Under the pieces are notes generated by a model. It had not been told where the DNA came from and searched no databases. It worked only from the letters and a program-made list of their open reading frames with translations. Shown piece after piece: positions 1,409 to 29,048 of a stretch of 64,000 nt of DNA; the first letter of the stretch is position 1, and every line of letters starts with the position of its first letter. This stretch comes from a virus (taxonomy: Duplodnaviria; Caudoviricetes): the IMG/VR virus record IMGVR_UViG_3300019371_000265, positions 32,001 through 96,000 of that record; one strand, 5' to 3'. The position numbers and the translations under genes were made by a program.

Positions 1409-1442
1409 TTATCTACCCCTCTTTCTCTATAAAATTCCGATT

Positions 1443-1889
1443 CTATTCTGATATTCTATCGTACAAAAATATTGTGATAGTGTAATTACCTGAGAAAATA
1501 TTAGGGGTTATCATTACACTGTTATTAATATTAAACATACCCATTATAGTATCCTCTATAATTTTAAGTGAACAACTTGTTTTTGGCACAGATAAAGCTA
1601 CGGAATATTTGGGATCACTAACATCAATTTTCAATAAATGTTGCTCACCTTTATAGTATTTGGTGATATAATTTGCAACTTTCTCTCCAATTTGCTTTGT
1701 TATAGGATACAAAATATCCATCCATACTGTGTAATCGCTAAGACTTTCAGAATTTTCTATGTAAAATTTCAATCTATCAATATCGTCATTTTTATTATGA
1801 TGATACACATCATACTTATTTGGAACCTTAAAAACGTTAGTTATTTCATTTGTTACCCTCTGATCATAAACTTTTGATGTATTAAACAT
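1443..1889 (-). CDS. Hypothetical protein
   Basis: ORF with AAGGAG RBS; stop inside repeat site 1429-1446. Confidence 0.7.
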   Translation of the reverse strand: MFNTSKVYDQRVTNEITNVFKVPNKYDVYHHNKNDDIDRLKFYIENSESLSDYTVWMDILYPITKQIGEKVANYITKYYKGEQHLLKIDVSDPKYSVALSVPKTSCSLKIIEDTIMGMFNINNSVMITPNIFSGNYTITIFLYDRISE

Positions 1890-1932
1890 TTTTGCTCCTT
1901 TCTATTAAATATTTCACTGTCAAATATCGGTT

Positions 1933-2259
1933 TTACTCACTACAAATTCCAAATGAAGTAATAGTCATGTTATTAACGATTTTGTCTAAAAGATCAACAC
2001 TTTCACATGTTCCGCCATGCCAAACGTATCCATCAACCCAAACCACGTTTTCGTCTTCTAAAAATTTGATGCTGTCACATGTACCTATTACCGTAGATGC
2101 ACCATCTTTATCTACATACTCAAGTGGTCTACTGGTAAAGTTCTCGCATGCCTTTTTAATCGCATCAATGTTAAACATAATGCCGTTCCCATCTGGTTTA
2201 TCCACTGGGACTGGAATCTTAAATGTTACGCCTATGTATTCACTTCTAATATCTATCAC
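1933..2259 (-). CDS. Hypothetical protein
   Basis: ORF bounded by two repeat sites. Confidence 0.65.
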   Translation of the reverse strand: MIDIRSEYIGVTFKIPVPVDKPDGNGIMFNIDAIKKACENFTSRPLEYVDKDGASTVIGTCDSIKFLEDENVVWVDGYVWHGGTCESVDLLDKIVNNMTITSFGICSE

Positions 2260-2289
2260 CTTCTCTCATTTCTGAGTCAACTCCACATT

Positions 2290-2775
2290 TTACCGTGAAT
2301 TTAATAATTCAATTGCCTTCTTTACGTTCTTTTCTTTTAGCCCATATTTAAACGAAGTCTGTACCAATCTGTCCATATGTGGTTTCATATCATTGTCATC
2401 GTCAATAATTATGAACGACCCAACGTTCTCTCCGTTCCATTTCCTTAACCACGAATCAATTTCTTCTCCTCTGTATCCACCGGATAATATTGGTGTACGA
2501 GACATAAATTTTATTCCAAACTCGTTCATCTTTTCTTCTAATTTTGTGAAATGTTCTGCGTTTAACGACTGGTGATTATAGTCTCTGTCAAACCAACCCA
2601 TTCTCCATGTTGAAGATAAAACGATCTTGGAATCTGTGGCATCTACAATTTCTTTTAATAATTTAATCTTGTTATCGTTTACGAAGTAAATGCTTCCTAT
2701 TTTACTTCTACAACCATTAAAATTTAACACTCCATCTATATCTAAGAATATTACCTTAATGCTTATCCACCTCAC
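2290..2775 (-). CDS. HAD-superfamily domain protein (RNA-repair-associated type)
   Basis: IFLDIDGVLN motif I, IVLSSTWR, IIDD. Confidence 0.8.
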   Translation of the reverse strand: MRWISIKVIFLDIDGVLNFNGCRSKIGSIYFVNDNKIKLLKEIVDATDSKIVLSSTWRMGWFDRDYNHQSLNAEHFTKLEEKMNEFGIKFMSRTPILSGGYRGEEIDSWLRKWNGENVGSFIIIDDDNDMKPHMDRLVQTSFKYGLKEKNVKKAIELLNSR

Positions 2776-2836
2776 TTTTAATCACGGCATAATGCTCTTT
2801 GACATACTATTTTGTTTGGAAATTTTATAAGATTCA

Positions 2837-2862
2837 AAGTCTTGTTTTCCTGCGCCAACAGG
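2837..2862 (-). promoter_or_regulatory. UUGGCG hairpin + AAACAAGACUU motif
   Basis: Minus strand cctg-ttggcg-cagg-a-aaacaagactt. Confidence 0.7.
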
Positions 2863-3168
2863 TTAAATCACTACTGCTTCATCGAAAATATCTGCTACTA
2901 AATCCAACGCATCAAACTGCGCTCTATCGTTCTGGTATATGTATTCAGATCCGCATGTTACCGCCGATTCATGTTTCTTGGCGTACGTTTCGATTAGTTT
3001 AATGACCTTTTCTTTATCAATAACCATATCATGCCTCCAAATTATCGAGTATGTCTTCTTTAAACGCCTTTGCGCTCCCGTACATTTCATCACACTAGGC
3101 ATGACCATGTTCAAAATCTGCATATTCATCTGCACAATCATCTTTAAATTTACAACCATAACAAGCAA
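2863..3168 (-). CDS. Hypothetical protein (true start probably ~3027, MVIDKEK)
   Basis: ORF track; GGAGG upstream of internal ATG. Confidence 0.5.
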   Translation of the reverse strand: MLVMVVNLKMIVQMNMQILNMVMPSVMKCTGAQRRLKKTYSIIWRHDMVIDKEKVIKLIETYAKKHESAVTCGSEYIYQNDRAQFDALDLVADIFDEAVVI

Positions 3169-3213
3169 GTGCCTGAAGTAATTCTACTTCGTTCATATAA
3201 ATATACCTCCATA

Positions 3214-3600
3214 TTAATATCTGTGTTCATCTTCATTTACCTCCAACCGAGCATCACCATTGCACAATGCCCATGTGAGAATACTAATTACCTTTCTGAC
3301 TTCATTTTTAGTAAATACTGCGAATAAAGTATTATCATCAAAATCAACATCACTAGTATCTATTGTAGAAAAATCAGCATGATAGTTTGTAATATTATTT
3401 GGAATATCGTTATATCCACAATCTGTCCCGTATTCAATACATGGACACAAGTACGTTACTCCGTTAAAACCAAACTTACCTTCTCTTTCATAGTATCCGG
3501 TTTTAACCATAATGTTATCATCTAACACATTTGGCTCATATACAGTAAATACCGTACCATCTGGTTCTCTGAGGAACTGTTCTTTATTCATAATTCTCAT
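3214..3600 (-). CDS. Hypothetical phage protein
   Basis: ORF with GAGG RBS. Confidence 0.7.
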   Translation of the reverse strand: MRIMNKEQFLREPDGTVFTVYEPNVLDDNIMVKTGYYEREGKFGFNGVTYLCPCIEYGTDCGYNDIPNNITNYHADFSTIDTSDVDFDDNTLFAVFTKNEVRKVISILTWALCNGDARLEVNEDEHRY

Positions 3601-3647
3601 ATTTAACCTCTAAATTCACTGTAGAATTTCCCTTTTACTGACTCACT

Positions 3648-4059: not shown

Positions 4060-4839
4060 CTAGTTTGCTACTAAATCTGTCTGATTTGCATTGATTATCA
4101 TTTCGACAACCTTTAACTGCCCTTTGCCTGTTACGAGTGTTTTAGGCTTCACCATGATTTTATCACCTTGCTCAAAGGTAACTTCAATTACTTTAAACCA
4201 ACCTCGTTCTATGTATGTTTGATATGGTGTGTTGTCAGACATAAGAATTTTCTTATCCTTCAACATCTGGAATAGCCTATTTCTACCAATATCAATATTG
4301 TTTTTCTCATGTAACATTTTCGCCATACTACCCATATCAATAGAGTTGTCAGCTTTAGTTACAGTTGTTGCAAAATTTACAAGTGGCTCATTTTCTTCAA
4401 TTACCTTCTTCAATGGCTCCGTAATAACCTCTTCGAATCTTCTAACTGCCACAGCTCTTTCTATATCACCTTCCGCATTTACGATTGCTAAGATGGCAGC
4501 ATCTTTATTCGTCAACGAGTGTCTGATGGTTTCTTCCATTTTGTTAAACGCCTTGATATATTTAAGTTTCCATTCAAGTGCCTTGCTCCCGGTAAATCCC
4601 ATCACCAACAAGGAGAAGCCATCTCTGTTCATCAAGTATTCTGGATATTCACGCCCTCTGTCTGTTTTGTACGTGGACGAAAAGAGCATATTTTTCACGG
4701 CGGAATTTTCCGCTATGAGATTTCTCACCGTTTCAAGCACATCTTTATGCTGTTTTTCGAACCTTTCAGCAACCTCTCTACTACTCACGACGGGTTCCCC
4801 ATTATATAAAACTAAATTAATATCGCTTATTTTAATCAC
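4060..4839 (-). CDS. Rha-domain + ANT/KilAC antirepressor
   Basis: VSSREVAERFEKQHKDVL...YLMNRDGFSLLVMGFTG (Rha); IGRNRLF...PYQxYI...TLVTGKGQ (KilAC). Confidence 0.9.
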   Translation of the reverse strand: MIKISDINLVLYNGEPVVSSREVAERFEKQHKDVLETVRNLIAENSAVKNMLFSSTYKTDRGREYPEYLMNRDGFSLLVMGFTGSKALEWKLKYIKAFNKMEETIRHSLTNKDAAILAIVNAEGDIERAVAVRRFEEVITEPLKKVIEENEPLVNFATTVTKADNSIDMGSMAKMLHEKNNIDIGRNRLFQMLKDKKILMSDNTPYQTYIERGWFKVIEVTFEQGDKIMVKPKTLVTGKGQLKVVEMIINANQTDLVAN

Positions 4840-4896
4840 TCTCCTTTTAATTTTTCTCCGTCAAATCTTGCATTTACTGGTAATTTAAATATAAGC

Positions 4897-5091
4897 CTAA
4901 TTTCCCAATATCCAATCAAGCCACATACAATAGCAATTACTGGCTGATTTCGTTCCTGTGTAGATCTTATCGCAATCCTCTTTTAATCCACATAGTTCAC
5001 AGGTTGCACAATCGCTCACCATATCCGCTATTTCTTCAGGAGATTTAATATTTTTCATACAATTTACCTCACTTAATTTAAATTCCATCAA
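4897..5091 (-). CDS. Small Cys-rich hypothetical protein
   Basis: CxxCxxC cluster; bounded by repeat sites. Confidence 0.55.
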   Translation of the reverse strand: MMEFKLSEVNCMKNIKSPEEIADMVSDCATCELCGLKEDCDKIYTGTKSASNCYCMWLDWILGN

Positions 5092-5205
5092 TCAACAATT
5101 TTACTTATTATTTAATAACAATGTCCTGTGCTCCCACCACCATCACAATGACCTGCCATCTGCCTACTCAGCCTAACTACCATTCTTAAAAAATTAGTAT
5201 ACATT

Positions 5206-6060: not shown

Positions 6061-6114
6061 TTTCTCTCCTTCTCCATCAAATTTTGGATTGACTTACTTA
6101 TTTGGACTTTTGGT

Positions 6115-6345: not shown

Positions 6346-6414
6346 ATTTTATTTCAATCTATATTTATATATTACTCCTCTTAAATAGCAATGTCAAGCA
6401 TTTTATTTCAATCT
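6346..6414 (-). promoter_or_regulatory. SigA promoter flanked by two AGATTGAAATAAAAT boxes
   Basis: TTGACA(6397-6392)-17-TAATAT; boxes 6346-6360 and 6400-6414. Confidence 0.75.
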
Positions 6415-6993
6415 ATTAAGCAACTCATCTAAGCGACTCTGACTGGCGGATATAGATGCATGCAGCGACTCAATCTCTTTCAATCTCTCACGTTCTTCCT
6501 TCTCTTTTAAGAGTTCTTCGTTGACTCTATAGAAGTCATCTTCATAATCCCAGTATGAATGTTCGTCTCCTTGCCACCTATAATCCATCAATAAGCATGT
6601 CTTACTTAGCCTGAGAGCTGGAGCTTGCCAATCGCAATCATGACCACAGCAGTCTTTGTCTTCTCTGTAATCTTCGTCTCCTAGTTTACACCAACAATAG
6701 CCGTCACCAGGTCTTAAATCAATAAAAATTTCAAACTCATATGTACAATTTGATAAACTAACCAAAATTTTTCCAAGTGATAGATAATCTTTTTCGTCAT
6801 TTACAATATACCTAATGTCATAAAATTCAGACCCGCATAAATCGCTTAAGAATTCACTATCTGGATTTTTTTCCAATGATTGTTGTAGTGTTGCCAATAT
6901 AAAAGGAATATCTATTTCATCATCGTGTTTATCGTGTTCATAAGTTAATTCTTTTATAACCTTGTTAATAAAATTGCTTACATTATTTTCCAC
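6403..6993 (-). CDS. Acidic Cys-containing hypothetical protein
   Basis: ORF with GGGGA RBS. Confidence 0.7.
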   Translation of the reverse strand: MENNVSNFINKVIKELTYEHDKHDDEIDIPFILATLQQSLEKNPDSEFLSDLCGSEFYDIRYIVNDEKDYLSLGKILVSLSNCTYEFEIFIDLRPGDGYCWCKLGDEDYREDKDCCGHDCDWQAPALRLSKTCLLMDYRWQGDEHSYWDYEDDFYRVNEELLKEKEERERLKEIESLHASISASQSRLDELLNRLK

Positions 6994-7306
6994 AATTAAT
7001 TCCCCTTCTCAGTCAAATTTTCGATTGACTTACTTATTCAAATTTCAATCTTGTTTATTACATTTAAAATGCTCACTGTCCAAAATAGTATCTAATAATT
7101 CTTCAAAAAAACTCATCTCCATCACCTCGATAATATTCGAAATCACAATTATGATTACTACATTTTAGGCTAGTAGACGTATCAATGACTCCCCAATGTC
7201 TTATTTTAACTTTTTTTGTGGTATTCCAGTTTCTGGGTTTATATACTGTTCTTTGTCAAACCCATGTTCTTGCGTTACCAGTAATTTTTCTTTACATACA
7301 GGACAA

Positions 7307-7504: not shown

Positions 7505-7565
7505 AATTCCACCTTTCTCCCGATTCTCCGGGAAATTTTAGTATCAAATATTTGTTTTACGGTAT

Positions 7566-8721: not shown

Positions 8722-8773
8722 TTATTTACCCCCCCACCTCCGTTTCTCCATCAATCTTTGATTCTACTGCGTA

Positions 8774-8983: not shown

Positions 8984-9184
8984 TTTCCCTCCACCATCTT
9001 TTCAATCTCGGTTTTAATAAAAACTAATTCTGCAAATCTCCCATCTCCATAGCCTAAATCATAAATTCCTTCTCCATCAAGATCGTCTGGTTCTTCTGAA
9101 TCTACGTTACCCATTTCTTCAATTCTCTTATTTAAAAACTCTAAAATCTTATCCATTTATCCTTCTCCTCATCAAATATAAATT

Positions 9185-9460
9185 CTACTTGGCTATATAT
9201 AGGCTTCCATCAGCATTGTACCTTGGACATATAGAAATACTCCTATGCCCTCCACCTAATTCTGTTCCAACTACAACATAGTTTACACCCGTATCATCAT
9301 CTACAATTTTAAGCGTTTGATAATTTCCATTCTCATTTTCAAACCAAATCTTTAGTGGGTTATCCTGTTTTGCATATGTATTTACCGATGCACAGCCAAT
9401 CAAAATTCCAGATATCATAAATGATACAGCTATTAAAATATTTCTAATTTTTGTTTTCAT
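9185..9460 (-). CDS. Secreted/membrane DUF6440-like protein
   Basis: N-terminal signal/TM; IVDxxTGVNY...PRYNADG. Confidence 0.65.
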   Translation of the reverse strand: MKTKIRNILIAVSFMISGILIGCASVNTYAKQDNPLKIWFENENGNYQTLKIVDDDTGVNYVVVGTELGGGHRSISICPRYNADGSLYIAK

Positions 9461-9470
9461 TATTTCTTCC

Positions 9471-9842: not shown

Positions 9843-9880
9843 TGCTCATTCTCCTTTCATATCTCCGTCAAATTGGGAAT

Positions 9881-10036
9881 TTATAGCACCACAACTCCAT
9901 TTTCCACTTCTATATCTAATTCGCTTAAATCTCTTGTTCCGTAATAATATCCACCGCCATCGGCATATTGAATTTCACATTCCAGCTTTTCATAATTACG
10001 TTTCTTTGCCCATTCATATAATTCTTCTATTGTCAT
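9881..10036 (-). CDS. 51-aa hypothetical protein (not in ORF track)
   Basis: GGAGG + ATG; MTIEELYEWAKK...; stop inside repeat site 9867-9884. Confidence 0.6.
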   Translation of the reverse strand: MTIEELYEWAKKRNYEKLECEIQYADGGGYYYGTRDLSELDIEVENGVVVL

Positions 10037-10054: not shown

Positions 10055-10282
10055 TTATTCCAATTCACATAAAGCATCAATTGCATCATTCTTTCCTTTA
10101 TTAATCTTTTTGATTGCAGAAAGACTTGCCAGACACTCCTGATTCTCTGAGCATAAAGAGTCATAATCTCCCATCACCGCCGAATGAAGAGTCATATATA
10201 CTTTCTTCTGTAAGTTCTGGCTATATATTTCTTTTAATATTTCTTCAAATGTCATATCGTATACCCCTTTTCTCTCTGTCAA
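10055..10282 (-). CDS. Hypothetical protein
   Basis: ORF track; likely start MTFEE. Confidence 0.6.
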   Translation of the reverse strand: MTERKGVYDMTFEEILKEIYSQNLQKKVYMTLHSAVMGDYDSLCSENQECLASLSAIKKINKGKNDAIDALCELE

Positions 10283-10298
10283 ATAAGAGATTGGCTGA

Positions 10299-11084
10299 CT
10301 ATGCAGCCATGTACTCTTTTCTTAATTTTTCTGTTATCCAAATCTGTCCTTTGCCCGTGACAAGTGTCTTAGTAAATACTTTCGTCCCGTATGCAGTATC
10401 TTTCGTTGTTTCTATAACGTCAAAATAGTTACTTTCTATGTATTTCTGATAAGGAGTGTTATTACTCATCAAAATCTTGTTATTACGCAACCATTCGAAT
10501 AATTTATTTCTCCCTATATTAATGTGTTCATTATGTAATACCTTCGCAAGTTCACCAATGTCAATCGTATCAGACGATTCTGTAACATGTGCCGCAAACT
10601 CAACCAATGGTTTCTGTTCTTCTAGCTGCCGGTTCTGTATAGCTATAATCTCATCTTTTTTCTTTAGCGTTTCTGAAGCAATGATAAACGCTCTTGCTAG
10701 AAACTCTTCATTAGATTCGTTTTCCTTTACGGGAATGTAACCTCCGGTCTTCCTGATCTGTGGAAGCACCTCATCAAAAAGCCATGTTTCAAACTTTTCA
10801 GCTGAAGGCAATTTACTGTGAGTAATCAATCGGTAAACATTTCCTTCATTAATAAATTTAGCATCCTGTTTTCTTCCCACAGAATCTATGACTGGGTAAA
10901 ACGCCCACCCATCTTTTTTACAGTGTGTTTTAATTGCTTTGGGTGAATCGGCATAACCAAGTGCTTTTGCAACATCAGTTCCACAAAATAAAATCTTTCC
11001 ATCGTCTTCAACTGTTCTTACCTTTCCAAATTCCTCATTCTCAAAAATCTTCAAATCCATACTTATAACAATCCTTCCTCTCAC
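10299..11084 (-). CDS. BRO-N + ANT/KilAC antirepressor
   Basis: FENEEFGKVR...DVAKALGY...SKLPSAEKFETWLFDEVLPQIRKTGGY; TLVTGKGQ. Confidence 0.92.
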   Translation of the reverse strand: MRGRIVISMDLKIFENEEFGKVRTVEDDGKILFCGTDVAKALGYADSPKAIKTHCKKDGWAFYPVIDSVGRKQDAKFINEGNVYRLITHSKLPSAEKFETWLFDEVLPQIRKTGGYIPVKENESNEEFLARAFIIASETLKKKDEIIAIQNRQLEEQKPLVEFAAHVTESSDTIDIGELAKVLHNEHINIGRNKLFEWLRNNKILMSNNTPYQKYIESNYFDVIETTKDTAYGTKVFTKTLVTGKGQIWITEKLRKEYMAA

Positions 11085-11137
11085 TTATATGTTTTTATTT
11101 TTAATTCACCGTCAAACCAGACTTCGACAGTGTCATT

Positions 11138-11557: not shown

Positions 11558-11595
11558 TCTCCTTTCACGGTAAAATCCGAGATTGACTTACAAAT

Positions 11596-12181: not shown

Positions 12182-12295
12182 ACCTATTACCTATCCCTTC
12201 TCCATCAAATACGAATTTTACATCATCTGTTAACGTGCTACATCTTTCGCATTATCTCTCCTTTTAGTTTGCAACATTTTATTTCAAATTATCAG

Positions 12296-12367
12296 CAGGG
12301 CTAGTTGGATTTGAACCAACGAATGCAGGAGTCAAAGTCCTGTGCCTTACCGCTTGGCGATAGCCCT
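12296..12367 (-). tRNA. tRNA-Gln (TTG)
   Basis: Cloverleaf: acceptor agggcta/tagccct, anticodon arm cagga-ctTTGac-tcctg, T-arm gttgg-ttcaaat-ccaac. Confidence 0.95.
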
Positions 12368-12872: not shown

Positions 12873-12932
12873 TGTATTTTTTCGAACACTGTAAATTTTA
12901 TTTCAAACTATTAAGATGGCAACAGGAGTTGC

Positions 12933-13979
12933 CTATTTATAATAGATGCTGCTCATGATATATGGTCTATAAATTTTTCTAACATCAGTGCCTTTCAATT
13001 TATCTCCAAATTTTTCAGATATTTCTTGTAAAATCTTACACCATTCATCATTTTTATAATCATCGTATTCTACAAATATTTTGCAGAAATTAGTATCACT
13101 ATAATTGTACAATTGTCTTCGCGCAAAGTTTACGAATCCGGATTTATGAAGTAAATCTATGTTTATGTCATCATATTTAGATCCGTATGTTCCATTAATC
13201 GAAAGTAAATGTGGAATTATATCCCGAACATCTTTTGAAATAATTTTTTGTAGAACCACCTTCTTATCTTCATTGAAAGTTTCTATATACTTTTGTAAGT
13301 CCATAGTTTCATTGATTTTGCTTTTAATTAATAATCCATGAACTGACATTAATCTTAATTGATCCAAGAGAACCTTATCTTTTGATACCCTTACTTTAAT
13401 ATATACATTGTCATTAATATATCCATTTATATATGAAAAAAGTAGTTCAGATCCATGAAAGACCCTATTTTTAAATCGAATTGTATTCTCGTCAAAATTC
13501 ACATCGGTTAATTTTATATTCGCAAATTCTTTTGCGTTCCGTATACCCTCAAAAAATCCATACACCAGCATACCATAATAATTTTTATTGTATTCAATGT
13601 CTTTAATAATGTTACGTATGTCTTCCTTGTACAGTATCTTAATATCCTTCTTCTCAATTAGCGTGTTAATCAACATCTTTTGCGATAAGGCATCAAATTC
13701 AGCGAATGGATTTATAAAAGTGTATCCATTATTCACACACCATTCAAAAAATTGGTTCAGGTAACTGATGTTTTCCATGAGATATTGCATGCTCTTAGTT
13801 TTACCACACATATCTTCGATGATTAAATCAACATATTCTTTCACCTTTAAATTAAACAAATCCTTCTCATAAATATATGGCTTCATTAAAAAGGCCTTCT
13901 GTTTATCAGTATATTTCTTGTAATTACAAAAATCTTCTATCATTTTCTTATAGTCTTCTACCGTATATTTAGTACTCAT
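12933..13979 (-). CDS. MrpR/YopR-like lytic repressor (tyrosine-recombinase fold, catalytic motifs degenerate)
   Basis: FFEGIRxxxEFxNIKLTDVNFDENTI; LHKSG in place of HxxR; own promoter with operator box. Confidence 0.65.
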   Translation of the reverse strand: MSTKYTVEDYKKMIEDFCNYKKYTDKQKAFLMKPYIYEKDLFNLKVKEYVDLIIEDMCGKTKSMQYLMENISYLNQFFEWCVNNGYTFINPFAEFDALSQKMLINTLIEKKDIKILYKEDIRNIIKDIEYNKNYYGMLVYGFFEGIRNAKEFANIKLTDVNFDENTIRFKNRVFHGSELLFSYINGYINDNVYIKVRVSKDKVLLDQLRLMSVHGLLIKSKINETMDLQKYIETFNEDKKVVLQKIISKDVRDIIPHLLSINGTYGSKYDDINIDLLHKSGFVNFARRQLYNYSDTNFCKIFVEYDDYKNDEWCKILQEISEKFGDKLKGTDVRKIYRPYIMSSIYYK

Positions 13980-14008: not shown

Positions 14009-14051
14009 ATCATATCACAATAATAGGAAAAGGTCAATTTTATTTCAATCT
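14009..14051 (-). promoter_or_regulatory. Promoter of MrpR-like gene with operator abutting -35
   Basis: TTGACC-17-TATGAT; box 14037-14051. Confidence 0.7.
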
Positions 14052-14475: not shown

Positions 14476-14549
14476 CTTATGACCTACTTATATCGGTCAC
14501 TACTCCTCTCACTATTTTTTGTTAGGGATTGTTGGTATAAATAATATCC

Positions 14550-14575
14550 AAGTCCTGTTTGCTCCGCCAAGAGCA
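14550..14575 (-). promoter_or_regulatory. UUGGCG hairpin + AAACAGGACUU motif in mazF leader
   Basis: tgctc-ttggcg-gagca-aacaggactt. Confidence 0.7.
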
Positions 14576-14598
14576 TTAGTAATTACTAACTTAATGAG

Positions 14599-14644
14599 AG
14601 TATAGCACATAAAAATATTAATGTCAACAATTTTATTTCAATCT
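14599..14644 (-). promoter_or_regulatory. mazF promoter with operator box
   Basis: TTGACA-17-TATACT, extended -10; box 14630-14644. Confidence 0.8.
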
Positions 14645-14645
14645 A

Positions 14646-16158: not shown

Positions 16159-16189
16159 TTAAAACTCCTTTCTCCGTCAAAGTTATCTT

Positions 16190-16432
16190 CTATGCGATTG
16201 CATAACATTCTTTGCATCTTGCTAATATTTCATTATTATCCATGCTTCTATAATCATCGTTAAAAACACAGATATAATATGGGGTTTTACCTATCGCATT
16301 TGCTATATTTAAAAGTCTTTTATAAACCTTTGTATCTTTTAATTCATCGATATCTATGTTGCCATAAACAAGACCACAAAGACAATGTGTAAAGGTGTTA
16401 GTGTCCGGGTAATATAATACTAAACTAATCAC
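16190..16432 (-). CDS. Hypothetical protein
   Basis: GGAGG RBS; stop inside repeat site. Confidence 0.6.
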   Translation of the reverse strand: MISLVLYYPDTNTFTHCLCGLVYGNIDIDELKDTKVYKRLLNIANAIGKTPYYICVFNDDYRSMDNNEILARCKECYAIA

Positions 16433-16453
16433 AAATTCACCTCCTCATCAATC

Positions 16454-16663
16454 TTATATTTTATGTGCTTCAATATAATTCCAATCTACCTGCGTTCTCT
16501 GCGACAAATTCTCAAACGCCACAACATCTCGGAACAAATTTGCCTTCATATAACTGGCTATTTCGATGGCTCGTTGTTTATTTTCCACCACAACAACCTG
16601 CGGACATGTCTTTTTTCTATACACCTTCCCATCTATTGAAAATGCCACTCCATATTTCTCCAT
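16454..16663 (-). CDS. Hypothetical protein
   Basis: AGGAGG RBS. Confidence 0.65.
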   Translation of the reverse strand: MEKYGVAFSIDGKVYRKKTCPQVVVVENKQRAIEIASYMKANLFRDVVAFENLSQRTQVDWNYIEAHKI

Positions 16664-17607: not shown

Positions 17608-17840
17608 ATAAACCTCCCTGCCAAATAATCCTTTTACTTACGCCTACATATTTTAATCTGATCTCTGGTGAAAATCGGAATACTATTCGTTCCGTTTGCA
17701 ATAGCAACATAATAATACGTGCCATCAAAATTATTTATTATTCCCCACTCATTATAGTAGATACTGTCTTTATCTTTAATGAAGCATTTTAAACCAATAC
17801 ACTTATTAATTTAGAACACCTCCGTTTCATCATCAAAGAA

Positions 17841-18083
17841 TCATTTTATGCACCTATTTGTGTATTCATTTTCTCCTAATTCTTCATCTTCCAATGTCAT
17901 ATACAATCCCTCAACTATTCTGTCCATTATTGTGGTTAATCTTGTTTCGTCATGAGTACTATATTCGTCCGGGTGATATAAACTATATCCAATTCCAAAT
18001 AAAGGGTTTTCTCCTTTGAATTCTTCGGTTAAACATTTTATAATATTTTTCTTTGCTATTTTAACATCTTGTTTTGTAAGCAT
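17841..18083 (-). CDS. Hypothetical protein
   Basis: GGAGG RBS. Confidence 0.6.
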   Translation of the reverse strand: MLTKQDVKIAKKNIIKCLTEEFKGENPLFGIGYSLYHPDEYSTHDETRLTTIMDRIVEGLYMTLEDEELGENEYTNRCIK

Positions 18084-18900: not shown

Positions 18901-18971
18901 ATTCTAAAACTCCTTAAATACTGTAATATTTTAAACAATCATATCTTCTAGTTCTATATAAAATATAGTTT

Positions 18972-19193
18972 TTATCGTATCAATACTATGTGCCTATTTA
19001 CGTAGTCCCAGGTATAGTTTTCTAATTCGTCCTTAATTTCAAATGGAGTTAACTGTCCGCACCCATCTTTTATTAGAATGTCTAAAACTGCTTTACAATC
19101 ATTCAATGTTTCTCCCGCATCTTCGATATATGGTTCGATATCTGAAAATGTACTTCCATTTTACCCACAATATGCTACTGCGTATTTTGCCAT
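18972..19193 (-). pseudogene. Small gene with internal TAA at codon 11; resembles 16454-16663
   Basis: MAKYAVAYCG*NGSTFSD...WDYVNRHIVLIR; RBS present; final stop inside repeat site 18958-18975. Confidence 0.55.
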
Positions 19194-19445
19194 AGTATTC
19201 CTCTCTTTCTGCCTTACAAGGCTATCAAATCTAACATTTACGGTGTATAACAGTTTAGTTGGTGTTGAGAAAAAATGTTTTTTCGCACTTTTCACACCTC
19301 ATTTTATTACCATATCCAGAATCCTTTTGCTCACAACTACAATAAGGGCATCTGATGTTAGCTTCATAATCTCCGTCAATACTGCATTGTCCTGTTCCTA
19401 GATAAATAGCTTTTTTCAATGTTATCCCCTCCTAAAAATCCTAAT

Positions 19446-19595
19446 TTATTTAATCCACATATCTGGATTGTTCTTGTGCAGCTCATTGTGAAACTTGACG
19501 AAATCACGATTTCTCTTTGATGATTTCCGGTTCCTCTGGTCTTCGTCCCAGATTATATAAATGATAGAACAAATAATTACTAAAAATCCTGGCAT
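19446..19595 (-). CDS. 49-aa protein with hydrophobic N-terminus and charged tail (not in track)
   Basis: MPGFLVIICSIIYIIWDEDQRNRK...; TGnTATAAT at ~19626-19634. Confidence 0.5.
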   Translation of the reverse strand: MPGFLVIICSIIYIIWDEDQRNRKSSKRNRDFVKFHNELHKNNPDMWIK

Positions 19596-19953
19596 GTTGT
19601 GTACCGTCCTTTTCGTTTTCTTCTTATTATATCATGCTGCATTAAAGCTGTGCCACTAATTATTACACTTTTCTCTGATTTACGGTGATACATGCTCCGT
19701 GATCTGTTCTGCAAAATTGATCATGTGTTTTACCTCCTGTCCGTCGAATACAACTTTTACTTACTATCCGCTTCTTCAATCTCTGAATCAACCCTAAAAT
19801 TCATCGTTAATTCCATTTGCTTTTGATTCTCCATTTTTATCAGAGCATATACCTCTGCTACCTCCTGACATGTAGTGCAATCTGCATATGCATCTTGGAT
19901 TTTTACTATTAAATCTTCCACCTGATTATCCTCCTTTTAATTAAATCTCATTT

Positions 19954-20322
19954 TTATTTATTCATATCTTCAATTACTTTCCAGTTGATCTGTTTAAAAA
20001 TTTCATCGGTAAACTCTTCTGCTTCTTCTTTCCAAACACAATAATTTGACTCGCAATGTTCATCAAGGTCATCTCCCCAATCTGAATACCAGTCATTCCA
20101 TTCGCCAGTCTCTTCATCATATTCTTGTAATCCTCCTGCATTAGTATAATCTGGCTTCACTCTGTGTTGCAGTTGAAAGGCATCGTATGCTGCCAATGTG
20201 TCAAGAACTTTCTTTCCTTCTAATACAGAACTAACAGGTACATAAAAAGATTCCATTGGTACCTGTGGAATCCACCATACTCTTAATTTACTCATAATAT
20301 TTATTCTCCTTTTCACTGTCAA
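19954..20322 (-). CDS. Gp17-like superinfection exclusion protein (likely start MSKLR)
   Basis: KLRVWWIPQVPM..F.VPV.S..EG....DTLAAYD.FQ....KPDY.N.GGL. Confidence 0.7.
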   Translation of the reverse strand: MTVKRRINIMSKLRVWWIPQVPMESFYVPVSSVLEGKKVLDTLAAYDAFQLQHRVKPDYTNAGGLQEYDEETGEWNDWYSDWGDDLDEHCESNYCVWKEEAEEFTDEIFKQINWKVIEDMNK

Positions 20323-20507
20323 ATGTGAGTTCTCTTGACTTTACTCAAAGTCTATTACGAAAGTAATTTTCGCGTTCTCTGGGATATGATTAACAATATC
20401 ATCTAACCATGTACCCATTGGATCACCATTTTCATCTTTTTCTGTTTCAATGAATATTAATCGTTCGCCTTTATGTAACCTACCTTCTACAACGTATCTA
20501 CCTTTAC

Positions 20508-21320: not shown

Positions 21321-21355
21321 TATTTCACCCCTTCATTCACTGTAAAATATCTCTT

Positions 21356-21574
21356 TTAATCACACATTTCGTCAACTTTAGTTTTTATATCGTTTCTATA
21401 TTTTTCCCAGAAATTAATTTCACAATTAGAGCAATCGTCACAATTGTGTGCTTCTCTTGATTCTCCTTCAATATAAAAATATGCATATGGACAATGCCCT
21501 TGCGGTACTTTTAATTTTGCATTTAATACATGTAAATTCAATATGATTTCTTTTAATTCTTCTCTGGTTTTCAT
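21356..21574 (-). CDS. Small Cys-rich protein
   Basis: Bounded by repeat sites. Confidence 0.65.
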   Translation of the reverse strand: MKTREELKEIILNLHVLNAKLKVPQGHCPYAYFYIEGESREAHNCDDCSNCEINFWEKYRNDIKTKVDEMCD

Positions 21575-21599
21575 TTATCCTCCTTATCAAATCACGCTT

Positions 21600-21788
21600 T
21601 TATGCACAAAAATTCGCCAATTTAATATCTGACATATATCGAGTTTCTCTTGTATTCTCTACGTCATACGTGTATCCCTTTTTAATCATGACTGCCTGTG
21701 CGAGAATGTTTGCTTCCTTTTCGTTGAACGCAACGGTGAATACAGTCAGTTCATTTGTAAATGTAACGATATAATATTTTTTAATCAT
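21600..21788 (-). CDS. Hypothetical protein
   Basis: Bounded by repeat sites. Confidence 0.65.
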   Translation of the reverse strand: MIKKYYIVTFTNELTVFTVAFNEKEANILAQAVMIKKGYTYDVENTRETRYMSDIKLANFCA

Positions 21789-21826
21789 GATGTTTTATCC
21801 ATTCCTTTCCCTGTCAAATCCTACAT

Positions 21827-22060
21827 TTACGCTATTAATTCACACATAAATAAATCGAAATCATCAAACATAATCTGTTCTTCTAATGCGCATTCATAGT
21901 ATAAGTCATATAAAATCCTGTCGCATTCTGCCGTATCGACATCTATATTGCAAACGAAACACAAAGTAGTGAATAAAGCCCTTGTTTGTTCTGGTATTTT
22001 GTAATCCCAACTATTTTCGATTAAGAAATCATGTAAATATATCATAAGTTTTTCTTTCAT
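21827..22060 (-). CDS. Hypothetical protein
   Basis: Bounded by repeat sites. Confidence 0.65.
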   Translation of the reverse strand: MKEKLMIYLHDFLIENSWDYKIPEQTRALFTTLCFVCNIDVDTAECDRILYDLYYECALEEQIMFDDFDLFMCELIA

Positions 22061-22307
22061 TTATTATTTCCTCTCTTCTCTATCCAATTTTGTATTGACA
22101 ATTTTATAATTCATTTAATCCATCTATATATTTTTCACAATCCTCTTTTGAACCTCTGTAATAAACCGCGTCACTATCTGGATTATATTCATCTTTTCTA
22201 ACAGGGAACGCATATATTCCGTCATATCCACATCTTGCAACTACAAGATAAATTTCATGCTCCATATTGTTTTCTCTCCTTCTCTATAAAAGACTTCTTT
22301 GACTGTT

Positions 22308-22523
22308 CTATTGATTATTACACATCTCTATAAACTGTTCTGTACTCATGGAATTTTCCCACCACTCAACCACCGGAGGATAGCTGTTCTTTCTTTTTCG
22401 GCTGTTTAAATATTTTGTTAGCTGCTTATCGAAATCTCGTAGCTGCTCCGATAAAAATGATGCCCGGATTAATTCAAAATCCTTACATTGTTCTAACTCT
22501 GGATACCGATCCATATGACGCAC
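22308..22523 (-). CDS. Hypothetical protein
   Basis: ORF track. Confidence 0.55.
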   Translation of the reverse strand: MRHMDRYPELEQCKDFELIRASFLSEQLRDFDKQLTKYLNSRKRKNSYPPVVEWWENSMSTEQFIEMCNNQ

Positions 22524-23152: not shown

Positions 23153-23297
23153 TTAGTGAAAACAGTCCGCTTAAACATGTACCAATTCCCATCATCAACA
23201 ATATTAAAAGTGCAATAATATTTGTTACTATAAATAATTTTCTCGACATAAGACTTCCTCCTATTCACCGTAAAATGTGCTTTTTATCCGGTTGTAA

Positions 23298-23879: not shown

Positions 23880-23914
23880 AATAACCTCCTTAATAAGTCT
23901 TTAAAATTACAATT

Positions 23915-24124
23915 TCACAGTGTATCAATATAGTTGTGCATACGTTCCTTCACTTCATCTATTTGATCGCTTAATTCTTTAAGTGGCTGTTGTTTTGCCT
24001 CTTCTGAAATTTCCATTCTTTTAATAATATTGATATCAGTTTTAATAGTGTCATACTCAAACTTTAATGATTCGAATGTATTTCTCTTTTGATTATCGTA
24101 ATTACAAAGGCATTTTGGATTCAT
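23915..24124 (-). CDS. Small coiled-coil protein
   Basis: Bounded by repeat sites. Confidence 0.6.
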   Translation of the reverse strand: MNPKCLCNYDNQKRNTFESLKFEYDTIKTDINIIKRMEISEEAKQQPLKELSDQIDEVKERMHNYIDTL

Positions 24125-24195
24125 ATTATATTCCTCTCTGACTTAAAAGTCCGTAAAACTTACTATTGAGTGTGTTTTATCATTTTTACGGTTCC

Positions 24196-24786: not shown

Positions 24787-24882
24787 TTAATTTAATTGGT
24801 TTATTCCCACTATAAAAGCCACTAGAAACTTGTTCTAATGGCTTCAAACTGTTAATCAAAGTACTATTTGACCGTAATTATG

Positions 24883-25224: not shown

Positions 25225-26013
25225 TTATTCACTATATGACCATTTCTGGACGTATTTCACCGCACCATCATATGCCGCTGGATTTAAGTCTTGCCAATGA
25301 CTACCACACTCAAAACGTGCTTTTAAGCCGTTCCATAAGTTAATGAAGTACATTCTTGAATTGTCTTTGTATTCCTGTGAATGTGCACCACCCAAAAGGA
25401 ATCCGACTCTATCTTTTGCAAGACGGTGAATTTTGTTCTGCTGAACCGTTGTGAGCGTCATGTTTGACATTACTTTGTCAAGCCGTGTTTTCGTCTGTTC
25501 GAATATTTCAAGCTGTTTTTCAATCATGGATTCCATGTTATTGATTTGAACGCCTTGTACTTTTACAATATCCTGCAATTTTGCAATCTGTCCGGATATT
25601 CCCATTTTGTCATAAAATTCTTGTTTCTTCTCTTCTGTTCCCATGAAATGCTCATGTAGAACCTTTTGTGCTTCCATTTGATAACGAATCAGTTTATTAT
25701 AAGCCTCTGGCTGTTCTTCTTCCATTCTATCTGTTAGCGTGATTTTAGCTAGCCATAAAGTAACAACCTGTTCTTTAATGAAAATCTGATCTCGACTTAC
25801 ATCTCTGTTTCCTTCTTTTTGAACAATCGCCAATGAGCGACAGTTGGATTTCAAAAGTTTTTCCTTTTGAATATTTTCGACCTGCTTTCTTGCCTGACCT
25901 TCAGATAATCCTAAGTCTAAACAAGTTTTCTTTACCGCAAGCCACACCTGACCATCTTCGTCCATCACTCCAAGTAATGTGTCTTCATAAAATTGGATTT
26001 CTTTTACTTCCAT
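25225..26013 (-). CDS. Antirepressor (P22 Ant N-terminal-like + ORF6C C-terminal domain)
   Basis: FYEDTL...WLAVKKTCLDLGL...LWLAKI; LTTVQQ..I...V...LGG...LW..LK.RF. Confidence 0.75.
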   Translation of the reverse strand: MEVKEIQFYEDTLLGVMDEDGQVWLAVKKTCLDLGLSEGQARKQVENIQKEKLLKSNCRSLAIVQKEGNRDVSRDQIFIKEQVVTLWLAKITLTDRMEEEQPEAYNKLIRYQMEAQKVLHEHFMGTEEKKQEFYDKMGISGQIAKLQDIVKVQGVQINNMESMIEKQLEIFEQTKTRLDKVMSNMTLTTVQQNKIHRLAKDRVGFLLGGAHSQEYKDNSRMYFINLWNGLKARFECGSHWQDLNPAAYDGAVKYVQKWSYSE

Positions 26014-26470: not shown

Positions 26471-26572
26471 TGCTATATCTCCTTTACATTTACTATTATA
26501 TATCATATATACTAATTTGTCAATTAGCTTTTTGCATTTTTTATAATTATTTTTCTATGTAAAATATTGATT

Positions 26573-26857
26573 TTACTTGCTTAATTCTAATATATTTCTT
26601 TGTTGCAAAAAGTACTGTTTTTCTTCTTCTGATATCTTATAAGATCCACTGTATCCGTCTGTTATTACATCGTAATATTGAATAGGATCAAATAGATTTG
26701 TATTAGTATTCCTACTTTGTTTTTGTTTAATGTAAAAGTCGCTTGTTGCAACAAAATAATCAAGTGCATACTTCACAGTAACACCTTCTATAAACCATTT
26801 TGAGTGTACAAAACGTTTATCTAAAAAACACTTTTTCATTGTCATTTTACCTCCCAT
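26573..26857 (-). CDS. Hypothetical protein
   Basis: Stop inside repeat site. Confidence 0.6.
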   Translation of the reverse strand: MGGKMTMKKCFLDKRFVHSKWFIEGVTVKYALDYFVATSDFYIKQKQSRNTNTNLFDPIQYYDVITDGYSGSYKISEEEKQYFLQQRNILELSK

Positions 26858-27087: not shown

Positions 27088-27177
27088 TTTGAAAACCCTC
27101 CATTAAAAATACGGTGAAATTGATAGATTAATTATATGCTCATAAAATATAACGGTCAAAGAATAGTTCTACTGCCA

Positions 27178-27396
27178 TTATCCAAAAGTGTAATTTTTCT
27201 CAAAATCAATTGTAAAATTTAATGTAATATCATTTCTTTCAATTTGGTGTTCTTTTACTTCACTGATAAAAGTTATTTCCGTTTCAGGATTCATACTGTT
27301 TTTAAAAATCTCCATAGCTTCCTGTTTTGTGATTGCTTTAATATATAGCCAACGGTTTCTATCATTGTATATATAGTAAACCCTATATATATTCAT
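27178..27396 (-). CDS. Hypothetical protein
   Basis: GGAGG RBS. Confidence 0.6.
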   Translation of the reverse strand: MNIYRVYYIYNDRNRWLYIKAITKQEAMEIFKNSMNPETEITFISEVKEHQIERNDITLNFTIDFEKNYTFG

Positions 27397-27398
27397 AT

Positions 27399-27683
27399 TT
27401 AGTCCTCCATAACTTTAATTAATTTATAGGTGCAATTAATAAATGTGAAACCATTATCAAAATATTTTATGCTATTTTCGTTCTGTTCTGATATGTCTAA
27501 GGTTGCCGTTTGTGTTCCGTCAAAGAATACAATATTATGTGTATTTACTTTGTGTAACACTCTTGAAAACGTTCCGTCATTCAGGCTGTTTGTGCGGGTT
27601 AATTCAAATATTGCCTTACCTTGTAACTGTCTTAACTGCTTTTTTAATTCTTTAAAATTAGTTGCATTTATGAATACCTTCAT
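27399..27683 (-). CDS. Hypothetical protein
   Basis: RBS after repeat site. Confidence 0.65.
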   Translation of the reverse strand: MKVFINATNFKELKKQLRQLQGKAIFELTRTNSLNDGTFSRVLHKVNTHNIVFFDGTQTATLDISEQNENSIKYFDNGFTFINCTYKLIKVMED

Positions 27684-27771
27684 TGTTTCTCCCCCTCCGT
27701 CAAATAATCGATTGATAGTGTTCTATAATGCTAAATCAGTCTACAGCCTGTGACAGCCATAGACCGAAAAT

Positions 27772-28431
27772 CTAAGCTACATTCTCACATTGACTTCTTA
27801 TTACTTTTTTCCCATTACCGTTTGACTCCATTCTTACTGGGAGAATGCAACAAATCCCAATTGATGTTTGAATGAAAATAGGACTTGTTTCTTTTCCGGA
27901 GTAATAGATTTCAGCTTCTTCCCCATCATTGATAATACTAAAAGCCTGTTCTAAAATTCCAAACTTAAAATATGCGTTTTCAAAATACCACACATATGAA
28001 AAATCATTTCCAGATCCGACTTCCTTCTTATTGAATTTATAGCCTTGGCTTTTTGCTTCTGCTAAAACTGTATTGAGATTTATCATTTTATTTTTATATC
28101 CAGAATAAGAAAGAAGTTTGTCAACTTTGTAATAGTTGTCATTCGAATTATCATACTCGGCAATTTCCCCGATAGATTCTTTTGTTAAGGCGATAGAATA
28201 TCCATCAATAAATGAGTAATAATCCTCGCCTTGATAATTTATCTTACAAGGTTTCTGTAAAGATTCGTTGGTATTTTCTTGAAACTTGAAATATTTCTTC
28301 ATGGCTGCATAGCGCTTTTTTGCATCAGGAATAGTTTTTATTCCATCTTGAAATATTTCATCCTGAAGCATGGTTTTTAGTTCTTCCGTTTTACCACTGT
28401 TTAGCATTTCTAATATTTTTGTGTTCTGCAT
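27772..28431 (-). CDS. Hypothetical protein, C-terminus reminiscent of a sliding-clamp domain
   Basis: FIDGYSIAL...SPIFI...ILPVR. Confidence 0.55.
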   Translation of the reverse strand: MQNTKILEMLNSGKTEELKTMLQDEIFQDGIKTIPDAKKRYAAMKKYFKFQENTNESLQKPCKINYQGEDYYSFIDGYSIALTKESIGEIAEYDNSNDNYYKVDKLLSYSGYKNKMINLNTVLAEAKSQGYKFNKKEVGSGNDFSYVWYFENAYFKFGILEQAFSIINDGEEAEIYYSGKETSPIFIQTSIGICCILPVRMESNGNGKKVIRSQCENVA

Positions 28432-28513
28432 TTATATATCCTCCATAATTTAATTTGTTTTACTAAAATAGGCTTATATCCTGTGACGGATACAAGCCCG
28501 TAAAATTCGGTTT

Positions 28514-28747
28514 TTATCTGATATTCACCGATACCCATCTTTTTGCAGAAGCTAATGATTTGCAAGTTTTTACAATTATTATTGAACTATCATTTTCTCC
28601 TTTGTCATATTCTATTTCAAATCCATCATTCGATTCTGATATCCAGACGTATTTACCATATCTTTCACTATTAATTTCTTTTACCCAACTAGTAGGTGTT
28701 CCCCATTCAGTATCACAATCGTGAACTATTTCCCATGTTTTTTTCAT
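28514..28747 (-). CDS. Hypothetical phage protein
   Basis: Bounded by repeat sites. Confidence 0.65.
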   Translation of the reverse strand: MKKTWEIVHDCDTEWGTPTSWVKEINSERYGKYVWISESNDGFEIEYDKGENDSSIIIVKTCKSLASAKRWVSVNIR

Positions 28748-28775
28748 TCTGATTCCTCCTCATAAAATGGATATT

Positions 28776-29048
28776 TTAAGCCACGTTTTTTATCATGTTG
28801 GAATATTCCGTATTATCCCATGTAAACGTACAATTTTTATACACGTCTTCCATGTCGATTTTCATTGCATCAAAACTTGTATAGCGTATGCATTTTCTAA
28901 TACCATAAGCAGTTATATAATCCATTGTACCGCCCTGAACGCTGTATAACTCTTTACTATAAATATAACCAAAGCAGTCACGATCCACTTTAAAGCTTGC
29001 GTAATGTGGCTTTCCGTTAACTGTTCCAATTTTTATTAATTTTTCCAT
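28776..29048 (-). CDS. Hypothetical protein
   Basis: AGGAGG RBS; stop inside repeat site. Confidence 0.65.
   Translation of the reverse strand: MEKLIKIGTVNGKPHYASFKVDRDCFGYIYSKELYSVQGGTMDYITAYGIRKCIRYTSFDAMKIDMEDVYKNCTFTWDNTEYSNMIKNVA

Follow-up and report, generated by a model that had tools for sequence, protein, structure and literature searches.

The gene junctions in the early arm of this phage carry a repeated 28-bp palindrome, and the new result is that the 6-bp centre of each palindrome is specific to its position. Diverged relatives keep these sites in the same order and with the same centres, and the sites flank genes that have been replaced. The palindromes may represent addressed junction sites for gene exchange between related phages by a phage tyrosine recombinase; we give this reading a probability of about 0.4. 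The window (the whole 64,000-nt stretch analyzed, positions 32,001–96,000 of IMGVR_UViG_3300019371_000265) is part of a provirus record that is an estimated 86% complete. The phage, distantly related to SPbeta, encodes a YonO RNA polymerase and a repressor of the SroF/MrpR fold. A literature search found no paper describing the element.

The palindrome is a dyad of GTMAAA-N6-TTTKAC with a 5-nt flank on each side, i.e., 11-6-11, and is longer than the 18 bp given in the initial annotation. The strict pattern GTMAA-N8-TTKAC has 8 matches against 0.46 expected, and none of 100 shuffles reaches 8. A 28-bp weight matrix derived from this pattern was used with a main cut-off of 12 bits and a looser one of 8 bits. 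In the genome (126,319 bp) it finds 61 palindromes above 12 bits, compared with 2.5 in dinucleotide shuffles. Window positions 1,400–28,800 have 36 palindromes at 12 bits and 38 at 8 bits, and the remaining 35 kb (28,801–64,000) have 4 and 6, respectively. The repeated junction palindrome reported by the initial annotation is real, and the weight matrix comparison proposed there shows the enrichment. Upstream of the window the array continues, and the minus-strand arm at genome positions 500–60,500 holds 52 sites. Dyads in the rest of the window include positions 36267–36294 (22.1 bits), 48 nt 5' of the YonO gene, and 62454–62481 (20.1 bits) in the late arm, both with the same centre in the related phage G001. 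Another, at 45115–45142 (19.0 bits), directly follows the second recombinase gene and is identical in G001.

The palindrome occupies the space from a stop codon to the ribosome-binding site that follows. Along the gene (minus) strand, the distance from the end of the site to the following start codon is 11–29 nt for most early-arm sites, which touch the Shine-Dalgarno sequence. This tight spacing suggests a role in expression. A stop codon (TAA, TAG or TGA) is present at arm positions 2–4 in all 17 cases where this had been claimed, 13 of them strong sites and four weaker dyads of the ATAAAA...TTTTAT type. The palindrome is always co-transcribed with the downstream gene and adjoins its ribosome-binding site, which would suit a short RNA hairpin ahead of each cistron, a signal for processing, stability or translation. 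This is unlikely in that the stems are weak and AU-rich, and an RNA signal gives no reason for a loop that stays the same in different phages when the gene after it is replaced. The paired M and K positions show no covariation, with A often facing G and C often facing T, so the palindrome looks like a site in DNA rather than an RNA stem. The shared 11-6-11 dyad is most likely a docking place for a dimeric phage protein. Its dif-like layout is the core-site architecture of tyrosine recombinases.

All 61 centres are distinct within the genome and none is palindromic. The spacer had been described as free; it does vary between sites, but at a given site it is near-invariant across related phages. 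At 33 of the 36 window sites the centre is kept, with the site order unchanged, in one or more of the relatives G001, L004, L005 and L015. The early-arm sites are all on the minus strand and are given here with matrix scores in bits. The centre is the same in G001 at 1424–1451 (19.2, collinear), 2271–2298 (19.4), 3616–3643 (23.1), 4855–4882 (21.9), 24148–24175 (13.2), 24850–24877 (17.7), 26554–26581 (19.4), 27150–27177 (16.8) and 27694–27721 (19.4). The right arm of 27150–27177 is also a -35 box (TTGACC, 17 nt, TATAAT). Sites with the same centre in both G001 and L004 are 7007–7034 (22.6), 7538–7565 (15.6), 9166–9193 (15.6), 9862–9889 (17.9), where homology begins at the site, 11565–11592 (20.9), where the flanks are unrelated on both sides, 12199–12226 (19.6), 16171–16198 (20.2), 20313–20340 (16.9) and 23265–23292 (17.0). 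The centre is shared with G001, L004 and L015 at 8745–8772 (20.4), 10273–10300 (20.8), 11106–11133 (26.1), 16442–16469 (15.3) and 17827–17854 (15.1), and with G001, L004 and L005 at 17615–17642 (16.1), 19219–19246 (19.6) and 23896–23923 (16.6). Conservation of the centre in L004 is seen at 6071–6098 (21.6), 21337–21364 (18.2), 21581–21608 (18.4, in a 25-nt island of 100% identity), 21808–21835 (20.2), 22281–22308 (18.4) and 19738–19765 (22.3), the last with one mismatch in G001. The site directly upstream of the recombinase gene, 15593–15620 (24.2), is in a 36-nt island that is 100% identical in L004. An extra gene follows the matching island in L004.

The three other sites are 28495–28522 (13.6), with one centre mismatch in G001, the weak site 5082–5109 (13.4), for which a partner was not found, and 1914–1941 (23.4). 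The last has no same-centre partner, and a site with another centre precedes the homologous gene in G001. Four weak dyads have a stop codon in the arm: 18953–18980 (10.7), 28757–28784 (7.7) and, under the matrix threshold, 19427–19454 (ATAAAT...TTTTAG type) and 19935–19962.

Comparison of G000 and G001 shows 44 sites with a collinear partner, 42 with no centre mismatch and two with one. Across 37 early-arm pairs the centres are 0.9% diverged, the left arms 17.6% and the right arms 9.9%, and the flanks are unrelated. The shared recombinase gene is 54% diverged at 4-fold sites between the same two genomes, and synonymous sites of the relatives are saturated. The site junctions fall in variable DNA: 2 of 50 have homology on both sides, compared with 16 of 81 site-free junctions. 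Of 34 intervals between conserved sites, 17 are unequal in length and without tblastx similarity, and only two are fully homologous.

Conservation decays gradually away from the centre and is biased to the downstream side, where it reaches into the flank. This pattern could also come from selection for uninterrupted identity in homologous recombination or from a 5'-leader function. It is in keeping with a different and quite possible, though tentative, explanation in which a protein with a regulatory or architectural function docks on the dyad and affects expression of the downstream gene, for instance as a transcription roadblock, an insulator or a bender of the HU/IHF type. As the sole well-conserved stretch of a diverged arm, the dyad would also be the place where homologous recombination, ordinary or relaxed, passively crosses over. 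The constant placement next to the Shine-Dalgarno sequence and the numerous exchange boundaries away from sites agree with this, and SPbeta encodes a Sak4-like annealing protein. In addition, homologous recombination produces phi3Ts x SPbeta laboratory hybrids, with crossovers within long homologous regions (bioRxiv 10.1101/2020.05.06.055103). However, two unrelated constraints are needed, one that keeps the arms common for binding and another that keeps the centres unique and near-invariant for homology. A regulatory role leaves unexplained why the centres are about 10-fold better conserved than the arms, and homologous recombination works poorly on islands of ~25 bp.

The exchange boundaries themselves bear on addressed exchange in both directions. 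SPbeta and phi3T have about 40 junction palindromes (~41 in SPbeta) in addition to their mapped operators, and five sharp block boundaries between these phages are inside or at the edge of equivalent palindromes. The yorT interval is replaced between two sites with matching centres, and the discriminating mismatch is directly beside the centre. The predicted coincidence of breakpoints with sites is seen at these five boundaries but is not general, as site-free junctions also carry exchange boundaries (14 of the 21 blastn HSP ends that lie at junctions). Homology transitions occur at 9 of 11 site junctions and 20 of 36 site-free junctions, and the excess is not significant.

The initial annotation interpreted the array as an integron-like platform on which single genes are captured, excised as circles and reordered. 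The genes are small, co-oriented and mostly promoterless, and they lie between recombinase-type sites with stop codons sometimes inside, as in integron arrays. The platform is nevertheless highly unlikely. Sites and shared genes follow a strictly collinear order in every relative, no cassette is seen to have moved, and nothing resembling a folded attC site, attI or Pc is present. Since all centres are distinct within the genome, site-to-site excision by a spacer-dependent recombinase would be blocked. What survives of the cassette idea is that the sites delimit units exchanged among related phages, though with only one site per ~2.7 genes. Integron attC sites are long, folded, single-stranded and variable in sequence, and their cassettes, which move as circles, occur in varying order; the phage sites keep a fixed order and are 28-bp duplex dyads.

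A repressor homologue of the SroF/MrpR/YopR fold (12933–13979, minus strand, 348 aa) is encoded in the arm. Its structural model has a pLDDT of 93 with the phi3T SroF-DNA complex, YopR and MrpR as top fold matches, and relatives carry Pfam MrpR_N_CB. The palindromes could be its operators, keeping the entire arm silent during lysogeny, similar to SPBRE or the mycobacteriophage stoperators. The repressor fold is that of a tyrosine recombinase, and stop codons overlap the sites in a stoperator-like manner. Cluster A mycobacteriophage stoperators, bound by the immunity repressor (L5 gp71), are 13 bp long and asymmetric and share one consensus. Dozens of them likewise occupy narrow gaps between co-oriented genes, often over stop codons, but the sites here are dyads with individually conserved centres. 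A dispersed operator, also raised by the initial annotation, is quite unlikely because a different 17-bp box is located at the promoters. This box has ~13 copies, paired around sigma-A promoters, and its locations include the repressor operon's own promoter and the region upstream of YonO. Two copies surround a sigma-A promoter at 6346–6416 (minus strand), and another at 14630–14646 (minus strand) adjoins the -35 of the PemK/repressor promoter. The 17-bp box is a better candidate than the palindrome for the operator of the SroF/MrpR-like repressor, judging from its positions. SPBRE in SPbeta and the SroF box in phi3T are operators of the recombinase-fold master repressor, which binds many dispersed sites (PMC10516654; bioRxiv 10.1101/2025.11.27.690993). 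They belong to the same lineage, but they are few (~10), located at promoters, read by a monomer and without the form of a dyad with a free centre. The box bound by SroF is 26 bp long and non-palindromic, and all of the ~10 MrpR ChAP-seq peaks are at SPBRE. Their role here fits the 17-bp box, the junction palindrome being an additional element in SPbeta and phi3T. L015 retains the palindrome and centres even though its repressor is 33% identical. The repressor is probably context and not the reader of the palindromes.

Both recombinase genes named in the initial annotation are present. The first (14646–15581, minus strand, 311 aa, SPbeta yopP position) has a Pfam Phage_integrase match of 27.9 bits and the catalytic residues R, K, HxxR, H and Y, which are conserved across its family. 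It is kept next to PemK and the repressor in L003–L005, L015 and L017, and is a candidate reader of the sites. The second (43990–45105, plus strand, 371 aa, yomM-like position), identified by Pfam Phage_integrase (58.7 bits) and phrog_1 integrase matches only, is the alternative candidate. No serine integrase was found in the provirus record, itself an estimated 86% complete, so either tyrosine recombinase may just serve the prophage as its integrase.

Known exchange systems provide partial parallels. In engineered Cre and Flp systems, heterospecific lox and FRT sites have common inverted arms and a short central spacer that decides pairing; sites with unlike spacers coexist without deletion, and two matching pairs permit replacement of the DNA between them. 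The same shared arms, proposed centre-specific pairing and replacement between two matching pairs apply here, but this is a natural array of about 50 different centres in one genome, with arms of 11 and not 13 bp, a spacer of 6 and not 8 bp, and a putative enzyme. The pdif sites of Acinetobacter plasmids are 28-bp 11-6-11 Xer-type sites that bound accessory modules (PMC6449649, PMC13141974). These modules too are discrete and differ between related replicons, and the pdif mechanism is likewise mostly deduced from comparisons. However, pdif sites have dissimilar XerC and XerD arms, alternate in orientation and use host XerCD, whereas the phage sites have symmetric arms, collinear order, position-specific centres and phage-encoded candidates. 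In T4-type phages, promoter/stem-loop (PeSL) motifs flank single variable genes (PMC2839356, PMC4122927) and similarly mark insertion, deletion and replacement boundaries between related phages. Those are one-consensus promoter-terminator composites driven by homology, unlike a promoterless recombinase-type dyad with a unique conserved centre per site.

For addressed exchange, we infer both the identity of the binding protein and catalysis by a recombinase rather than exchange driven by homology. Each unique 6-bp centre would identify its junction across the phage family. When two related phages are in one cell, a phage tyrosine recombinase, possibly the yopP-like or the yomM-like enzyme, would pair sites with the same centre and exchange strands. 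Unlike centres would stop deletions within one genome, and a pair of crossovers, one at each of two neighbouring addresses, would swap out whatever gene or genes lie in between.

The window covers bases 32,001-96,000 of a single provirus record of 126,319 bp (86% complete by CheckV). Gene orientation switches at about 31 kb of the window, from the minus strand to the plus strand. The strict junction pattern GTMAA-N8-TTKAC, read in the initial annotation as the mark of an integron-like cassette array, has 8 matches compared with 0.46 expected. A weight matrix grown from this pattern gives a 28-bp dyad in which GTMAAA and TTTKAC stand on either side of six variable bases, with 5 nt of flank outside each. 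This 11-6-11 form has the two inverted arms and 6-8 bp central region of a simple tyrosine-recombinase core site of the dif, lox or FRT type. In the whole genome there are 61 sites above 12 bits (2.5 in shuffles), 52 of them in the minus-strand arm. The concentration in the early region is confirmed by the matrix, which places 36 sites at positions 1,400-28,800 and 4 in the other 35 kb, and all 17 stop codons previously placed inside an arm are found there.

On the gene strand, the upstream stop codon is often inside the left arm, a Shine-Dalgarno sequence follows immediately after the site, and the start codon is 11-29 nt past the right arm. The palindromes adjoin ribosome-binding sites within operons, not operon promoters. 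Promoter-like matches are not above shuffles (103 vs 106), and at one site only does an arm double as a -35 element. An RNA hairpin would have stems that are AU-rich with no T run. The arm positions M and K, which would pair in it, show no covariation, as expected if a symmetric protein reads the site as DNA and not if it folds as an RNA stem; the hairpin reading was rejected on this ground and is given very little probability.

The centres were compared between the studied phage and a relative represented by a 120-kb IMG/VR contig (G001), together with the partial contigs L003/L004, L005 and L015 from other relatives. The arms of the genome are strongly mosaic between the studied phage and these relatives. 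Collinear partners in G001 are present for 44 sites (37 pairs in the early arm), and of these 42 have an identical 6-bp centre and two differ by one mismatch, where about one centre match would be expected by chance among all site pairs. Centre mismatches are bimodal, either zero or unrelated, and the identity is therefore not a selection artefact. Identity of the central region between partners is a property of recombinase core sites; here it holds for sites at the same position, whereas inside one genome no centre is shared, every centre being different and none palindromic. Over the 37 early-arm pairs the centre has diverged by 0.9% per position, the left arm by 17.6% and the right arm by 9.9%; the right flank stands at 19%, and farther out divergence is essentially random. 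In the recombinase gene that the two phages share, 4-fold degenerate sites have diverged by 54%. Of the 36 window sites, 33 have the same centre in one or more of the relatives, and the order is always unchanged. This includes L015, whose repressor has only 33% identity to that of the studied phage, yet the centres are kept. From these alignments, the centres appear to act as position-specific addresses.

Other contigs show further features of the junctions. L014, from a relative with a repressor 40% identical, contains little early arm and zero sites. The more distant L017 gives poor matrix scores, but ATAAAA...TTTTAT-type dyads are seen by eye, as is an A-tract word like ATAAAAATAAT right before the ribosome-binding site of many genes, which resembles the phi3T SroF box core. 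In L004, positions 4593-4640 carry two sites with different centres, 20 nt apart and with no intervening gene, which looks like an empty slot.

A mechanism that might produce this pattern is one in which a recombinase would pair sites of the same address on two co-resident phage genomes. Crossovers at neighbouring addresses would replace the DNA between them, and the unlike centres would guard the genome against internal deletions. One such mechanism would explain why the arms are common to all sites and also why each centre is nearly invariant. Recombinase-driven exchange at addressed sites is given a probability of about 40% from the sequence comparisons. In the main rival, also tentative and slightly less probable, a protein with a regulatory or architectural role binds the palindrome, which is passively a hotspot for homologous recombination. 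Such a passive joint would account for the fixed spacing to the ribosome-binding site and for the graded, downstream-skewed conservation, but it requires two separate constraints and does not predict centres that change about 10 times more slowly than the arms.

The DNA between sites is frequently replaced. Consecutive conserved sites delimit 34 intervals, of which 17 have no tblastx similarity and are of different length, and two are homologous throughout. Homology on both flanks is found at 2 of 50 site-bearing junctions compared with 16 of 81 site-free junctions, i.e., the site-bearing junctions sit within variable DNA. In L003/L004 a TnpB/Cas12f-like gene (Pfam Cas12f1-like_TNB; positions 14148-15497) lies between two conserved sites where the studied phage has other genes.

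Boundaries are sharp between SPbeta and phi3T because the two have near-identical blocks in common. There, 5 of 24 block ends fall within a junction palindrome or at its edge. One replaced segment is the yorT interval, and the palindrome on each side of it has a centre common to SPbeta and phi3T; in another case a discriminating mismatch is directly beside the centre. Between the studied phage and G001, the ends of blastn HSPs are not enriched at site junctions over others (7 of 21 compared with a 37% background), a crude measure because the two genomes are far diverged; short blastn islands were uninformative. Three observations weigh against recombinase-driven exchange. Exchange boundaries also occur at site-free junctions, the excess of homology transitions at sites is not significant, and laboratory hybrids of SPbeta and phi3Ts arose by crossovers in long homology (bioRxiv 10.1101/2020.05.06.055103). 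The hybrid crossovers cannot be placed, since the parents are 99.7% identical across shared regions (58% query cover).

The middle of the array contains a gene set resembling the SPbeta 'sro' operon. It consists of a ParB/GmrSD_N-like gene (15622-16158), a tyrosine recombinase of 311 aa (14646-15581), a PemK/MazF-like toxin gene (14050-14475, minus strand) and a 348-aa protein (12933-13979). The toxin gene is between the recombinase and the repressor in every relative examined. A MazF carried by the phage is noteworthy because the phi3T arbitrium system works via host MazF (PMC10769878). A second tyrosine recombinase (43990-45105) is at the position of SPbeta yomM. These two genes with Pfam integrase matches are the candidate enzymes for arm binding and for cleavage at the centre edges. 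The catalytic residues R, K, HxxR, H and Y are kept across the family of the 311-aa protein, to which this check was confined. As to the specific extra domain of IntI, the integrase that integrons carry beside attI and Pc, both recombinases match Pfam only as generic Phage_integrase, and an AlphaFold model of the 311-aa protein from 7 sequences has a pLDDT of 56, too poor for a fold search.

Other genes include a YonO-type single-subunit RNA polymerase of 997 aa (36342-39335, plus strand) that has the DNDGD motif and 37% identity to SPbeta YonO across 80% of its length. The 120 nt upstream of it contain an operator-like box, a GC hairpin and a dyad. Three antirepressor-type genes are present in the one early arm, at 4060-4839, 10299-11084 and 25225-26013 on the minus strand (Rha/ANT, Bro-N/ANT, P22_AR_N/ORF6C). 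An HNH/homing-endonuclease gene (53285-54397, plus strand) is directly downstream of the portal gene and precedes the next late gene. There are two phage tRNA genes, tRNA-Gln (12295-12367, minus strand) and tRNA-Pro (46590-46665, plus strand), the latter with 91% identity to the tRNA-Pro of rV5-like coliphages. A megablast search of a phage collection gave tRNA matches only and no near relative.

Direct Pfam and BLAST searches with the 348-aa protein gave no match. However, 6 of 50 aligned sequences (the query and 49 of 54 phmmer relatives) carry Pfam MrpR_N_CB, and the structures closest to its predicted model (pLDDT 93) are phi3T SroF bound to DNA, followed by YopR and MrpR. By profile and modelled fold only, it is thus identified as a master-repressor homologue of the SroF/MrpR type. 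Neither recombinase-fold protein had a match when its sequence was searched against solved structures or compared by BLASTP with SPbeta YopR and YopP.

A second dispersed element is a 17-bp box (ATAGATKGAAATAAAAT) with about 13 good copies in the genome, and it is conserved in G001. The boxes are paired around near-consensus sigma-A promoters (-35/-10) on both arms. Minus-strand positions are 6346-6416, 12276-12292, 12895-12911, 14037-14053 and 14630-14646, the last at the toxin/repressor operon promoter; plus-strand positions are 33855-33871, 33913-33929 and 36223-36239, the last upstream of YonO. SPBRE in SPbeta occupies corresponding positions, at promoters and upstream of YonO (PMC10516654). 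The 17-bp box is likely the operator of the SroF/MrpR-like repressor, judging from its placement.

That the palindrome itself is a repressor operator or stoperator was the initial working reading. TAAAW-N6-WTTTA occurs 41 times in SPbeta (7.5 expected), for the most part at junctions of early genes, and 36 times in phi3T (6 for the reversed control). The palindrome thus accompanies mapped operators in these phages and a separate 17-bp promoter box here, and for this reason the reading was dropped; it is now considered quite improbable. Operators are found at promoters of regulated operons, where the 17-bp box flanks the -35/-10 elements and the palindrome does not. In SPbeta, no more than about 10 peaks were seen by MrpR ChAP-seq, every one of them at SPBRE (PMC10516654), and the junction palindromes are absent from the reported peaks. 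SroF binds as a monomer to a non-palindromic 26-bp box (bioRxiv 10.1101/2025.11.27.690993), which also argues against a palindromic operator.

Several known systems resemble the array in part. Integron attC sites are imperfect inverted repeats, about 57-141 nt long, that fold in single-stranded form and have R and L boxes, whereas the dyads here are 28 bp, have a 6-bp centre and are not flanked by any longer repeat. Integron cassettes are excised and reinserted, and their order varies between relatives. Here the sites and shared genes are strictly collinear in G001, L004, L005 and L015, contrary to the cassette reordering first proposed, and an integron-like system is highly improbable. Engineered heterospecific lox/FRT exchange follows the same logic, with common inverted arms and centres that match between partners yet differ by position. 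The pdif/dif modules of Acinetobacter plasmids (PMC6449649, PMC13141974) have unlike XerC/XerD half-sites that alternate in orientation; no such polarity is present here, because the arms are symmetric in the consensus. PeSL cassettes of T4-type phages (PMC2839356, PMC4122927) have an early promoter and a terminator stem-loop in the motif, which the junction dyads lack. These systems and the SPBRE/SroF boxes are the nearest known, and each shares features with the palindromes but differs in at least one defining feature. The palindromes would belong with gene modules bounded by recombination sites. Neither the junction palindrome nor its conserved centres turned up in literature searches.

Mosaicism in phages is usually attributed to rare illegitimate or relaxed homologous recombination followed by selection. 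In the 60-kb arm studied here no sequence is better conserved than the junctions; their centres are about 99% identical despite saturated synonymous sites, and the genes between them are replaced. A fuller account, possible but somewhat doubtful, is that SPbeta-like phages have a natural cassette-exchange system of about 50 ordered heterospecific sites with conserved 6-bp addresses. A phage tyrosine recombinase would swap single accessory genes between co-resident relatives, deletions within a genome would be forbidden, and the SroF/MrpR repressor would be a disarmed paralogue of that enzyme. Exchange of this type would explain what the conserved tyrosine recombinases yopP and yomM do, for which no role is reported in the literature examined, and if true would represent a natural set of orthogonal recombination sites. 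The idea is directly testable because SPbeta and phi3T, both of which are genetically tractable, carry this element too. The conservation speaks for a dedicated and addressable mechanism by which large temperate Firmicute phages exchange accessory genes, probably including anti-defence genes.
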